5,793 bases of DNA from NCBI RefSeq assembly GCF_003334255.1, contig NZ_QOWU01000103.1, one strand, 5' to 3'. The translations under genes and the position numbers were made by a program. The DNA is from Escherichia coli. Its GTDB lineage: Bacteria; Pseudomonadota; Gammaproteobacteria; Enterobacterales; Enterobacteriaceae. Under the pieces are notes generated by a model. That model was given only the letters and a program-made list of their open reading frames with translations, searched no databases and was not told where the DNA came from. Below, one piece after another: positions 1,190 through 5,793 of this stretch. How positions within the stretch are numbered: the stretch's first letter is position 1; every line of letters starts with the position of its first letter.

Positions 1190-1253
1190 CATCCCTGATT
1201 AATTCAGGGATGCGCACTTAGACGTTTCTCTCCTTCGTCGAGAAACAGTGCGC
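1190..1253 (-). other. oriT, RSF1010/MOBQ-like, with predicted nic on the minus strand between 1213 and 1212
   Basis: An inverted repeat gtttctc (1224-1230) / gagaaac (1240-1246) has the same arm sequence as the RSF1010 oriT repeat as recalled. On the minus strand the repeat is followed by gtcTAAGTGCG|C, 11 nt to the predicted nick, compared with RSF1010 GAGAAAC-CGGTAAGTGCG|CCCT. A second hairpin follows: catccctga(1190-1198)/tcagggatg(1204-1212). Confidence 0.7.
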
Positions 1254-2382: not shown

Positions 2383-3099
2383 ATGCAATTGGATGAACAT
2401 TCAAGAAAAATTGCTGCTCTTGTTGCGTATAATGATAAACAAATAAAAGAAATGAACAGGCTAATTACTCTGCTTAATGAAAGAGTGAATGACTTAAATA
2501 CCTTTACAAGTACTCTTGAACGTGAAGGTAAAGTTGTTTCTGGAATTTCTTATTCCTTTAGGGATAGTGTGTCTAATGTTAAATTTTATATTAATAAAGG
2601 AATGGATGAGGCATCTTGTAAATTACAGAAATCAGTCTCAGATACACTAACGTCATTACTCCGCGAAAAATTATCTTTCACTCTCAATGATGTAAAGAAA
2701 GAGTGGGTTGATTTCGAGGAGCAAACAAGTAAAGAGATAAAGGAATCATTAAAGCAGACGACCAGAGAGGCCGAAGTTGCGACAGGTATAATTAGAAAAA
2801 CAATGGAGAAGTATACAGTAACAAGGATTGTCGAAAAGGTAATTGTGTTGATTGTATTATTTTTATTGCTAATGATCGCTCCTGTTTTCTATGCTGAATA
2901 TCTCAAAATGAATATTAGTTCGCTAATGGAAGAACAGAAAAAACATGAATCCATGTTAAAAGAATGGAAAGAAAAAGCTCCATTGGCCGAGTTCTCGAAG
3001 TGTGGAGATTATCGTAAAGCATGCGTGTTAGTTGATGACGAAAGCGGATATTATTTTAATGAACAATCACCAAATAAAAAATATGCCATACTGAAATAG
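2383..3099 (+). CDS. Hypothetical coiled-coil, single-pass membrane protein, 238 aa
   Basis: GGAGG (2368-2372) lies 10 nt before the ATG and 20 nt after the mobA stop. About 150 aa are heptad-rich and charged. One hydrophobic helix, VIVLIVLFLLLMIAPVFY, spans aa 153-170. The 68-aa tail has Cys207 and Cys214. The gene is AT-rich like the rest of the cargo. I recognise no family. Confidence 0.75.
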   Translation: MQLDEHSRKIAALVAYNDKQIKEMNRLITLLNERVNDLNTFTSTLEREGKVVSGISYSFRDSVSNVKFYINKGMDEASCKLQKSVSDTLTSLLREKLSFTLNDVKKEWVDFEEQTSKEIKESLKQTTREAEVATGIIRKTMEKYTVTRIVEKVIVLIVLFLLLMIAPVFYAEYLKMNISSLMEEQKKHESMLKEWKEKAPLAEFSKCGDYRKACVLVDDESGYYFNEQSPNKKYAILK

Positions 3100-3156: not shown

Positions 3157-3729
3157 TCACGTAAAAATAAAATAAATACCTGTACCTAATATAAAAATGG
3201 AACTACATATGCTTATGTATCTTGAGAATGATGGCGTCAATTTATCCCTTATCGTTAAGCTAATAGCTATGTAAATAAGATCTGTTAGGAATGATATAAA
3301 TATAAATAAAACACCCAATATAAAAAAGTTTAATGTGATATTTGTATTATTATCTATAAAGGTTGGTATTAACGCAGCAAAGAAAAGATACGCCTTGGGG
3401 TTTAATAATGGTATCAAAAAAGGTTTTTGCTCTTTTCTTTGTTTGTTTTTTTTATTAATTAAACCCATTAATCCTATGTATATTAAATAGCCTCCACCGA
3501 ATATTTTTATAATGTGAAAATGTTGTTCTGTGCTGGATGTTGAGGATAACGCGAAAAGAGATATTGCCATGACGATAGTCTCGCCAATTCTTATGTATAT
3601 ACTTGTTTTTATTGATGACTTTAATCCATGTAAAAAGGCATTGTTTATAACCAATGCAACGCCAGGCCCTATTGATATAGTTTGCGATAAGGTTACGATA
3701 GCAAATGATAATAATGTTGAATATTCCAT
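3157..3729 (-). CDS. LysE/RhtB-family amino-acid (derivative) exporter, 190 aa
   Basis: Family hallmarks can be read directly: N-terminal ...SQTISIGPGVALVINNA (PGP-type motif), KIFGGGYLIYIGLMGL, and LLNPKAYLFFAALIPTFID. About six hydrophobic segments. The start lies 6 nt after the upstream gene's stop. Confidence 0.88.
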   Translation of the reverse strand: MEYSTLLSFAIVTLSQTISIGPGVALVINNAFLHGLKSSIKTSIYIRIGETIVMAISLFALSSTSSTEQHFHIIKIFGGGYLIYIGLMGLINKKNKQRKEQKPFLIPLLNPKAYLFFAALIPTFIDNNTNITLNFFILGVLFIFISFLTDLIYIAISLTIRDKLTPSFSRYISICSSIFILGTGIYFIFT

Positions 3730-3735
3730 GTTTAC

Positions 3736-4686
3736 TTACCATGATATATTTCGTGGGAGCTTTTCATATACATATTCCATAGGAATTGCAGCTTTCGGTA
3801 ATAAATTTATAAATGTTGATATGTGTTTTAGTGAATTGCTGGCGGCGATTGAGTAAAAATTTCCGCTATTCCAATATATTGATGCGTATTTAAAATGTTG
3901 TTTAATTGCGGAAAGCATATCGTCAACACTAACTTCATTCAAATTCATTGTGTTTAGTACGATTTCCTTTTTGGTGTTAATCTCATCTTTCGAGAAATAC
4001 CTTTGTTTGAATGAATAATCTTTTTGGATTTCTCTTTTTTGATATTCATCATGTTCTGAACTATGTTTTTCTGTAAATATGAAAATACCATCATTATTTA
4101 ATAGCCTTTTTACGTGGTTTATTTGCCCAGATCTGTTAGGTGGGTACATTTGAAATGTGGTGTCTTCTATTATAATATCGAATCCTTGATTAAATTGTTT
4201 AAGATTTGAATTTTTTAGTCTTTCCTCTAACAGGAAAAATGGAGTGCAAATAAAATAAGCGTTTTCACTTGAGCCATACTTAAAAAATGCATGTTCATTT
4301 TCTTTTGTTGGACTGGTTGTTAATGTTTGTATGTTTCCTTTTGATAATTCTGAAATGGTTCTTGCCATTGCGCCCTCAGCCATACCAAGACACCATGTGT
4401 TTAATTTTTTGTTTAGCGTGATTGCGTATTTTATTACTGTTGTTCCTAATCTGCACTCTTCTTCCTTGCTGTATGGTATACTGCAAAAATAATGATTAAC
4501 GAAAGGGCCGCTGTTTTTTGTGAGGTGTTTGGCAAACTTAATGTAATCATAAGAATGAAAAAGCCGATCATCTATTTCTACTAGTCTAAAAGGTTTGTGT
4601 TTTTCCCCTGATGCAGTTGATGAGAAAAATTCTGCCATGCCGTTTATTCTCGGAGCGGAAATACATTCATTTATAAAATTATTCAT
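3736..4686 (-). CDS. Divergent class I SAM-dependent methyltransferase-fold protein, CmoA (carboxy-SAM synthase)-like, 316 aa
   Basis: SD agagga lies 7 nt before the ATG. WCLGMAEGAMA aligns to CmoA motif I YDLGCSLGAAT, and IQTLTTSP aligns to IIAIDNSP. FDIIIEDTTFQMY...LLNNDGIFIFTEK aligns to ...LNPGGALVLSEK. The C-terminal FSKDEINTKKEIVLNTM...SVDD...NSGNFYSIAA aligns to CmoA YSELEISQKRSMLENVM...SVET...QCFNFGSLVA. The CmoA sequence was recalled from memory. Confidence 0.8.
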   Translation of the reverse strand: MNNFINECISAPRINGMAEFFSSTASGEKHKPFRLVEIDDRLFHSYDYIKFAKHLTKNSGPFVNHYFCSIPYSKEEECRLGTTVIKYAITLNKKLNTWCLGMAEGAMARTISELSKGNIQTLTTSPTKENEHAFFKYGSSENAYFICTPFFLLEERLKNSNLKQFNQGFDIIIEDTTFQMYPPNRSGQINHVKRLLNNDGIFIFTEKHSSEHDEYQKREIQKDYSFKQRYFSKDEINTKKEIVLNTMNLNEVSVDDMLSAIKQHFKYASIYWNSGNFYSIAASNSLKHISTFINLLPKAAIPMEYVYEKLPRNISW

Positions 4687-5140: not shown

Positions 5141-5262
5141 GAAAAACAAACGCCCCTGAAATTCGTGCCGATCCGCCAAGACTGTCACGAAAATTCAAGG
5201 GGCGTGTGGGTCGTAACACACGGAGGAAATCCTAACACATGAGCGCCGTACTTCAACTCTTC
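5141..5262 (-). ncRNA. Antisense copy-number control RNA (ColE2 RNA I-like); the 5' end is approximate
   Basis: The minus strand carries a long hairpin (5206-5150, GC-rich base acgcccct/aggggcgt, 19-nt apical loop) followed by uuuguuuuu (5149-5141), a canonical intrinsic terminator. Candidate promoter TTCGTA (5297-5292), 17-nt spacer, TAATTT (5274-5269). The predicted length of about 120 nt is compatible with the reported RNA I of about 115 nt. Confidence 0.5.
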
Positions 5263-5793
5263 AGGGAAAAATTACCGCACAAACCGTACTGTACGAACGA
5301 TTTCACGTACGGCGTTCGCATTCTACCGAAAGATATCGCCATCCTTGCCCGTTTCATCCAGCAGAACCAGCCACATGCGCAGCACTGGCTGGCCTTTGAC
5401 GTTGACCGGACGGGGGCAGCGATCGACTGGAGCGACCGGAACTGTCCGGCCCCGAACATCACCGTAAAAAATCCACGTAACGGGCACGCGCATCTGCTCT
5501 ACGCGCTCACTCTTCCGGTGAGAACCGCGCCGGATGCATCGGCTTCGGCGCTCAAATACGCTGCCGTGATTGAGCGTGCGCTGTGTGAAAAACTGGGCGC
5601 GGATGTGAACTACAGCGGCCTGATCTGCAAAAATCCGTTCCACCAGGAATGGCAGGTGGTGGAATGGCGTCGGGAACTCTATACCCTCGACGAACTGGCG
5701 GATTATCTTGATTTGAGCGCCTCAGCGCGCCGTCGCGTCGATAAAGATTACGGGATGGGGCGAAACTGGTATCTGTTCGAAAAGGGCCGTAAA
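5239..5793 (+). CDS. rep: ColE2-type replication initiator/primase Rep, N-terminal part (185 codons, open to the window end, continues at base 78 via the junction)
   Basis: My translation has no stop codon: MSAVLQLFREKLPHKPYCTNDFTYGVRILPKDIAILARFIQQNQPHAQHWLAFDVDRTGAAIDW...NGHAHLLYAL... It contains a primase-type acidic DVD motif and a GHAHLLY motif, and matches my memory of the ColE2/ColE3 Rep N-terminus. Confidence 0.92.
   Translation, partial: MSAVLQLFREKLPHKPYCTNDFTYGVRILPKDIAILARFIQQNQPHAQHWLAFDVDRTGAAIDWSDRNCPAPNITVKNPRNGHAHLLYALTLPVRTAPDASASALKYAAVIERALCEKLGADVNYSGLICKNPFHQEWQVVEWRRELYTLDELADYLDLSASARRRVDKDYGMGRNWYLFEKGRK
5717..5793. repeat. Second copy of the terminal redundancy (identical to 1-77)
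   Basis: Exact 77/77 identity to the window start. Confidence 0.95.

Follow-up and report, generated by a model that had tools for sequence, protein, structure and literature searches.

The 5,793-nucleotide stretch of Escherichia coli DNA analysed here (contig NZ_QOWU01000103.1 of assembly GCF_003334255.1; hereafter the window) contains, at positions 1190-1263, what is very probably the origin of transfer (oriT) of a pSC101-type mobilization module, RSF1010-related and belonging to MOBQ1. By analogy with its characterised relatives, the nick is predicted on the minus strand. A second element on this strand, CGCAC(T), lies immediately 5' of the recognition hairpin. Its sequence can pair with nic positions -5 to -1 (with -6 to +1 in the case of the window), and in related oriTs it covaries with the nic core. 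We propose tentatively, as something possible rather than probable, that in pSC101-type MOBQ oriTs this element pairs with the five nucleotides ending at the scissile bond, as a form of DNA-guided nic presentation or end-joining. If this is true, the pairing could serve as a built-in splint that joins the two ends when the strand recircularises, or could keep the nic region from returning to the duplex.

The minus strand at positions 1212-1220 reads TAAGTGCGC and agrees with all nine invariant bases (9/9) of the MOBQ oriT consensus NWACCNNTAAGTGCGCCCTYNN, which is quoted in PMC3832669. The bases that follow, +2 to +4, are ATC in the window, as against CCT in the nic core TAAGTGCG^C(CCT), where the caret marks the nick here and throughout. 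Together with the nick-proximal arm of the recognition repeat, the minus strand reads GAGAAAC-GTC-TAAGTGCG^C, with 11 nt from the repeat to the presumed nick. The composite pattern GAAACNNNTAAGTGCGC has a single match in the window, without any mismatch, where chance would give about 0.05 matches even at a tolerance of 2 mismatches. The preliminary description of this DNA had located an inner repeat, an outer pair (gcgcac at 1212-1217 and gtgcgc at 1248-1253) and a hairpin at 1190-1212, and a check against the sequence found all of these coordinates correct; the outer repeat extends by one base to GCGCACT (1212-1218) and AGTGCGC (1247-1253). C1212, the first base of the latter hairpin (hp2), is nic position +1, and a 1-nt gap separates the 5' element from the repeat. 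On the minus strand the recognition loop is GA-CGAAG-GA, a C-GAA-G mini-hairpin flanked by tandem G.A. Among the 571 plasmid records of PLSDB that match the region, most preserve its core (1208-1270) at about 92-94%. The parts of the oriT and the neighbouring genes are collected in Table 1.

The relaxase encoded next to this site bears out the earlier assignment to the RSF1010-type MOBQ oriTs. Its relaxase domain is 45% identical to RSF1010 MobA over 222 aa (E = 2e-54), with the Y, E-E and H...HxH residues aligned, and its best solved relative is the R1162 MobA structure PDB 2NS6 (E = 1e-37). RSF1010 reads GAGAAAC-CGG-TAAGTGCG^C. It shares with the window the repeat arms GTTTCTC and GAGAAAC, the core TAAGTGCG^C and the 11-nt repeat-to-nick distance; there too a hairpin follows the nick, which is on the strand that carries the divergent accessory gene. 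Experimentally, RSF1010 is nicked at TAAGTGCG^CCCT. A 38-mer of the RSF1010 oriT has matches of 100% identity in 121 plasmid records, of which the ten listed are typed as mobilizable and the single one looked at is an IncQ1 plasmid in which the motif is on the mobC strand, opposite mobA.

Judged from sequence, the closest characterised system is pSC101 (NC_002056) rather than RSF1010. Its MobA is 51% identical to that of the window over the full length, its accessory protein 'TraD' 55% and its MobX 29% (E = 6e-13), and in both plasmids the accessory gene diverges from mobA-mobX with the oriT in between. Because of the MobA, 'TraD' and MobX homologies and the same gene order, the whole module is best described as pSC101-type. 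The oriT of pSC101 has the same layout on the accessory-gene strand, namely GCGCAC, GTTTCT...AGAAA, a spacer, TAAGTGCG^C and a 9-bp hairpin from +1; the strand of the TraD-like gene reads GCGCAC-GTTTCT...AGAAAG-TC-TAAGTGCG^CCCTGATAA. Comparison of the window with the RSF1010 and pSC101 oriTs finds an identical core TAAGTGCG^C in both. The window differs from pSC101 in having a 7-bp repeat, a 9-nt loop, the 1-nt gap between element and repeat and another hp2 sequence, and pSC101 has a Rep_3/iteron replicon whereas that of the window is ColE2-type. In the pSC101 record (4095-4103 of locus L086; numbers of this form are our handles for loci) the nick-proximal arm reads AGAAAG-TC-TAAG, one base shorter than the AGAAAC-GTC-TAAG of all close relatives. 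Either the old sequence contains an error here, or pSC101 has truly lost 1 nt and its repeat is correspondingly closer to the nick.

The strand of the nick was addressed with 80 genomic loci that encode relaxases 54-92% identical to that of the window. About 50 of the 80 have (A/G)GAAA(C/G)-N3-TAAGTGCG^C upstream of mobA, on the strand opposite to the gene, with no change in sequence or spacing. The nic core is constant in the approximately 50 relaxase-linked relatives that carry AAGTGCGC. The repeat arms covary in relatives (for example GTTTCAC and GTGAAAC) and are replaced by wholly different long repeats in Methylobacter. The preliminary description was right to call the minus-strand copy the better match, since this copy has the full core at the 11-nt distance known from RSF1010 and shares its strand with the accessory gene, an arrangement also seen in RSF1010 and pSC101. 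It was also right that a second hairpin follows the minus-strand nic as in RSF1010; pSC101 has one as well.

On the plus strand, the sequence reads GAGAAAC-A-GTGCG^C (1240-1253), and one could read this copy as the real nick or as a second one, with the plus strand or either strand being transferred. In most relatives GTGCG adjoins the repeat on the plus strand and changes together with the minus core, in some of them the plus copy reads GTGCGCCCT, like the sequence after the RSF1010 nick, and a small hairpin follows the plus copy too. Locus L053 has a canonical plus copy beside a minus core that reads TAAGTGCC. The plus copy, however, lacks TAA and is 5 nt closer to the repeat, as was already noted in the preliminary description, and in relatives it is found 0-4 nt from the repeat with C, G or A as its +1 base, whereas the minus copy keeps a constant 6 nt from repeat to pentamer (11 nt to the nick). 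It is missing in six loci (L027, L041, L043, L049, L051 and L059), and it is absent from the Acinetobacter subgroup and from RSF1010. A nick on the plus strand would also give the hairpins TNC loops, while GNA loops are a feature of the other strand only, and the synteny with RSF1010 and pSC101 places nic on the accessory-gene strand. Because its distance from the repeat and its +1 base vary and some relatives are without it, the plus-strand GTGCGC is not a second nic, and we give hardly any credence to a nick there. Of the pseudo-symmetric nic motifs proposed in the preliminary description, the symmetry stands, being real, conserved and covarying; the alternative nic does not, and the second copy reads best as an intrastrand pairing partner of the first.

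The composition of the hairpin loops has the same polarity. Triloops of the form C-GNA-G make unusually stable DNA mini-hairpins. Among the main repeats with a 3-nt loop, the loop is GNA on the TAAGTGCG strand in 23 of 28 and GNA on the other strand (TNC) in none of the 28. Longer loops have an internal CGNAG in 30/60 cases and CTNCG in 2/60, and the loop of the window is of the CGNAG kind. Similarly, a mini-hairpin like the one that abuts the 5' element in the window (hp0) abuts the element in 43 of 58 relatives, and its triloop is GNA in the minus-strand orientation in 25/27 and TNC in 0. Because the GNA loops are strand-specific, the hairpins look built to fold in the TAAGTGCG strand. The Acinetobacter subgroup adds a further asymmetry. 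Its 5' flank, CGTGCTTAG, pairs over 9 bp with CTAAG(T/C)GCG up to -1, in a helix that has a 2-nt bulge and one or two G.T wobbles, which would be A.C mismatches on the other strand. A wobble test of the outer helix was informative for the Acinetobacter group only, the A.C 'extensions' being trivial one-base spacer effects. The Acinetobacter-type loci (L027, L041, L043, L049, L051, L058-L081, L194 and L196) represent a different solution to the same layout, and in many of them additional sequence separates the oriT from mobA, which starts more than 260 nt downstream of it.

Synteny, comparative constancy, loop composition and the Acinetobacter subgroup agree, and from this agreement we infer a minus-strand nick between G1213 and C1212. 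The preliminary description had left open which strand is transferred. The comparative data and the strand-specific loops support the minus strand as the one that is nicked and transferred, and at the level of sequence comparison the question is not really an open one.

As single-stranded DNA, positions 1180-1275 form a much more stable fold than shuffled sequence does, whichever strand is taken (z = -4.8 and -5.5). The predicted fold of the minus strand (-20.6 kcal/mol, z = -4.8) consists of three abutting helices, which are hp0 (CTCC-GCA-GGAG), an outer stem CGCACT:AGTGCG that encloses a 5-nt bulge and the repeat, and hp2. In the minimum-energy fold the outer stem ends at -1 and hp2 begins at +1. 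Relatives have a comparable arrangement: a Watson-Crick helix of at least 4 bp ends exactly at -1 in 63 of 88 oriTs, and 62-64 of 86 non-redundant relatives have a hairpin whose first base is +1, the arms of these hairpins comprising 57 different sequences.

Since the plus strand folds as well as the minus strand, the structure might instead belong to RNA, as an element in the 5' leader of the mobA mRNA that controls stability or translation, with hp0 sequestering the Shine-Dalgarno sequence. Transcription from a promoter-like site at 1161-1189 would begin near 1196 and so ahead of the entire structure, and in the window the 3' arm of hp0 on the plus strand holds the likely mobA Shine-Dalgarno sequence GGAG, 14-17 nt before the ATG. 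However, in such an RNA the loops would be UNC, with the GNA bias on the other strand, and the G.T wobbles of the Acinetobacter helix would be A.C mismatches. The structure is 40-130 nt from the mobA start in many relatives, so that occlusion of the Shine-Dalgarno sequence would not be general, and an Rfam scan returned no RNA family match at the oriT. We consider a leader RNA quite improbable, though slightly less so than a plus-strand nick.

The case for pairing between the 5' element and the nic core comes from covariation. Nearly every relative with a TraD-like gene has the element, and several relatives without such a gene have none. Variant-core oriTs were sought in metagenome contigs with AGAAACNNNTAAGCGYGC, and only matches in which the repeat was kept were considered; about two thirds of the matches were chance occurrences without a repeat and were discarded, which left 32 loci. 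In fifteen of the 32 the contig also encodes a MobA-type relaxase, and with the exception of L181 its gene and the oriT have the divergent arrangement that was expected. In that locus (2638-2711; relaxase 36% identical) the oriT-like site is on the mobA strand, just upstream of the gene, the reverse of all other loci.

In a contingency table of 88 non-redundant oriTs, the nic pentamer GTGCG is accompanied by the complementary element CGCAC in 41 cases, by no element in 6 and by a mismatched element in 0. The corresponding counts are 11, 13 and 0 for GCGTG with CACGC, and 4, 13 and 0 for GCGCG with CGCGC. The element therefore matches the nic pentamer in 56/56 oriTs that carry one, and 0 of 10,000 permutations were as good. 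Pair counts on a loop-excised alignment of 48 oriTs find changes on both sides at 2 of the 5 pairs, GC to AU in 6 sequences and AU to GC in 11; none of 500 shuffles scored as high, and the signal collapses when the partners are slid. When mapped on a neighbour-joining tree of relaxase domains, the nic pentamer has undergone at least 3 changes, and CACGC:GCGTG occurs in two separate clades. The covarying complement is seen with relaxases down to 36-42% identity to that of the window.

Two inverted recognition motifs that evolve together would give the same covariation as pairing within one strand, which counts against pairing as the explanation. As an alternative, the pentamers and hp2 would be half-sites of a duplex operator for a dimeric TraD-like protein or MobA, without hairpin pairing, and would act in relaxosome assembly and in repression of the divergent promoters. 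Palindromic half-sites covary too, the element co-occurs with TraD-like genes and is missing where none was found, and promoter-like sites are immediately beside the oriT. The hp2 arms are hypervariable, as specificity determinants are, and have no strand-specific wobble bias. The spacing does not suit an operator. Measured centre to centre, the pentamers are about 28 bp apart in some oriTs and more than 56 bp in others, depending on the repeat and loop. Such variation fits a stem closed around the hairpin, whereas a fixed dimer on B-DNA could hardly accommodate it without extrusion of the repeat. The GNA-loop asymmetry and the Acinetobacter G.T-wobble helix argue for folding of one strand, and what is conserved is precisely the 5 nt up to the scissile bond. 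A duplex operator thus seems unlikely to us, though it is the least unlikely of the alternatives considered here.

Several other observations weigh against the pairing. Several relatives have no 5' element, and a distal complement, sought in the relatives without an adjacent one, was found only in RSF1010. The minimal R1162 oriT is reportedly 38 bp and functional without the upstream complement. Two Competibacteraceae contigs (L053 and L054) have an altered nic core, TAAGTGCC in L053 and TAAACGCG in L054, and the element is still GCGCAC; their plus-strand copy, upstream of mobA, has the canonical form GTGCGCCCCT. Both loci thus depart from the covariation seen elsewhere, whether through decay of the oriT, through sequencing errors or as a genuine exception. 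The stems of hp2 have no strand bias (G.T in 5 cases, A.C in 8), and their complement is slightly more stable, so that these stems do not tell which strand folds. Finally, the usual view, as stated in PMC3479197, is that relaxases bind their substrates without stabilising base pairs, and a paired nic core seems at odds with such binding of single-stranded substrates. Because the minimal R1162 oriT reportedly works without the element and some relatives do not have it, pairing is a widespread accessory feature and no universal requirement.

RSF1010 differs from the window in having no complement adjoining the repeat; GCGCAC is found 30 nt upstream of the repeat instead. In the oriT region of the IncQ1 plasmid examined (L002, 2693-2752), two mini-hairpins, CCC-GAA-GGG and GGCC-GTTA-GGCC, are found between GCGCAC and the repeat, and the single-stranded DNA is predicted to fold into a four-way junction, which GCGCA:TGCGC closes across the nick (z = -3.25). 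Another variation on the theme is seen in six metagenome loci with the spacer GCG and the core TAAGCGTG (L110, L121, L137, L145, L161 and L202), where C-GCG-TAA-GCG can form a CGC/GCG mini-hairpin with a GTAA loop that takes in part of the nic core. Five of these six have no 5' element, and L137 has CACGC four bases from the repeat.

A working model of mobilization can be put together from these parts. MobA, with the TraD-like accessory protein and probably helped by MobX, would recognise the GTTTCTC/GAGAAAC hairpin on the minus strand. It would cut 11 nt 3' of the hairpin in 5'-GTC-TAAGTGCG^C-3', between G1213 and C1212, and would stay covalently attached to C1212 via Tyr22. The type IV secretion system of a helper plasmid would then export the minus strand 5' to 3', so that the accessory gene and the replicon enter the recipient first and mobA last. 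The position of the nick, the covalent tyrosine and the direction of transfer are carried over in this model from RSF1010/R1162 and pSC101. Sequence comparison itself shows the homologies of the genes, the motif (including its strand and spacing), the covariation and the restriction of GNA loops to one strand. On the transferred strand, the CGCAC(T) element would pair with the five to seven bases that end at the nick. With hp2 starting at +1, the scissile bond of the folded strand would lie at the junction of two helices. The pairing may hold or present the 3' end for cleavage and rejoining, or it may help to melt nic from the duplex. For rejoining, stacking of the two helices would juxtapose the 3'-OH and the 5' end in the absence of a complementary strand. 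To go from the covariation to any of these functions is an interpretation of ours.

A similar layout is known from the HUH transposases of the IS200/IS605 family, in which bases 5' of the foot of a hairpin read the bases 5' of the cleavage site (PMC3479197). The guides of IS200/IS605 (IS608 TnpA) and of REP-associated TnpA belong to HUH enzymes, as relaxases are, and the likeness is that of a window-type 5-nt element, 0-4 nt 5' of the hairpin foot, which is complementary to the 5 nt before the nick and covaries with them. The enzyme families differ, and the pairing in the relaxase oriTs is plain antiparallel Watson-Crick. The comparison is one of layout only and implies no membership; RSF1010 and some relatives are without the adjacent element, and the pairing is predicted from sequence. 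Text searches (by motif and for pSC101/mobX) returned no description of the pairing element, the primary pSC101 papers lying outside the searchable literature, and newness of the covarying nic complement cannot be asserted.

The module is RSF1010-like at the oriT but outside the IncQ Mob modules. RSF1010 has a MobA-primase fusion together with MobB and MobC. The 361-aa MobA of the window has no primase part (its alignment to RSF1010 MobA ends at residue 218), a MobB gene was not found among the genes of the window, and the accessory protein of the window has no detectable relation to RSF1010 MobC (E = 0.068), which is not a PF06412 protein. An IncQ-type Mob module was rejected on these three grounds. 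MOBQ4, the group of ColE9-J and pIGWZ12, is the other candidate that was set aside, here against its published description. Its members are also small enterobacterial ColE2-type plasmids with a MOBQ relaxase and a divergent accessory gene, and their oriT is in an intergenic region of about 178 bp, compared with 172 bp in the window (PMC6856555). However, the MobC of MOBQ4 has fewer than 100 aa and no known homologues, the C-terminal domain of its relaxase is SogL-like, and its histidine spacing is RSF1010-like, with H125, H133 and H135 (PMC6856555). The window has a 148-aa PF06412 protein and a 361-aa relaxase with a 5-aa insertion between His111 and His124/126, and the C-terminus of this relaxase aligns with pSC101 MobA. 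Because the accessory protein and the relaxase features differ, the window represents a different MOBQ clade from MOBQ4.

Bases 1-77 of the window recur at 5717-5793 (a 77-bp overlap), so that the window covers a circular plasmid of 5716 bp once and completely. Megablast finds at least 10 complete plasmid records of the same size from E. coli and Salmonella at 99.9-100.0% identity, and plasmid records matching at 99.8% or more come mostly from these two hosts. One of the matches, NZ_AP022820.1, is typed by PLSDB as mobilizable with a MOBQ relaxase. The preliminary description of a MOBQ module on a ColE2-type replicon holds, in view of the PF03090 and sub-threshold PriCT_1 matches of the initiator, and this pairing of module and replicon has been described before (PMC6856555; PMC3832669 names ColE2-P9). 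Just upstream of rep, positions 5153-5201 of the minus strand give a sub-threshold Rfam match to the repBA pseudoknot (19 bits against a gathering score of 45), which is probably due to chance, though its position is suggestive. In ColE2-type plasmids the antisense RNA control region is located just upstream of rep.

The 'TraD' gene diverges from mobA and sits on the strand that we take to be nicked, and a TraD-like gene is upstream of and divergent from mobA in 62 related loci. Its family, PF06412, is that of the Agrobacterium-type small TraD, and the label is easily confused with the coupling protein TraD of the F plasmid. A study of pSC101-like plasmids calls this 'TraD' gene that of the T4CP, a type IV coupling protein (PMC10376468), which a protein of about 150 aa cannot be at such a size. 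In MobA, the catalytic residues by alignment are Tyr22, Glu74/Glu76, His111 and His124/His126, and Tyr22 aligns with the catalytic Tyr25 of RSF1010. A MobX homologue is found downstream of mobA in 15 related loci. In the window this gene has a GC content of about 33%, well below that of mobA (about 47-52%), and its product has a hydrophobic segment near residues 150-170. The minus-strand cargo at 3157-4686 is also low in GC, about 29-33% against about 50% for the backbone, and encodes a LysE-family translocator and a 316-aa protein with weak spermidine-synthase/methyltransferase-like Pfam matches only. The two promoter-like sites beside the oriT (1150-1189) are weak, overlapping and divergent, and are recognised by their consensus matches alone.

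Table 1. Parts of the predicted oriT and neighbouring features of the 5,793-nt window.
Feature	Positions	Strand	Remarks
nic core 5'-TAAGTGCG^C-3'	1212-1220	minus	predicted nick between G1213 and C1212
Spacer GTC, 3 nt, between recognition hairpin and TAAG	1221-1223	minus	length constant, sequence variable in relatives
Recognition inverted repeat GTTTCTC (1224-1230) / GAGAAAC (1240-1246)	1224-1246	minus	7 bp, 9-nt loop
5' element GCGCACT (plus-strand AGTGCGC 'pseudo-nic')	1247-1253	minus	complementary to nic positions -6 to +1
hp2, perfect hairpin 3' of the nick	1190-1212	minus	arms 1190-1198 / 1204-1212 (9 bp, 5-nt loop)
hp0, mini-hairpin CTCC-GCA-GGAG	1253-1263	minus	GNA triloop closed by C:G; abuts the 5' element
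Promoter-like site TTGTCT-17-TAAAAT	1161-1189	plus	towards mobA, through the oriT; consensus match 9/12
Promoter-like site CTCACA-18-TATTAT	1179-1150	minus	towards the accessory gene; consensus match 9/12
Relaxosome accessory gene, 148 aa, annotated 'TraD' (conjugal transfer protein TraD)	659-1105	minus	Pfam PF06412
mobA, MobA/MobL relaxase, 361 aa	1277-2362	plus	PF03389, E = 9e-38; no primase domain
mobX homologue, 238 aa, GenBank 'hypothetical protein'	2383-3099	plus	29% identity to pSC101 MobX, E = 6e-13
ColE2-type replication initiator	5239 across the junction to 452		PF03090 and sub-threshold PriCT_1 match

The oriT itself is an ordinary, unannotated addition to a known oriT type, on a plasmid that is already many times in the databases. 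What is added is an oriT with a predicted nick, G1213^C1212 on the minus strand, for very common small plasmids of E. coli, Salmonella and Shigella. It can be used for oriT annotation and mobility prediction, as the core is conserved in about 570 PLSDB records. Of wider interest is the conserved and covarying complement of the nic core beside the recognition hairpin. If this element acts in cleavage or rejoining, presentation of the substrate to a conjugative relaxase would depend in part on DNA-DNA pairing, and such pairing, if functional, could serve to re-target or insulate mobilization systems.

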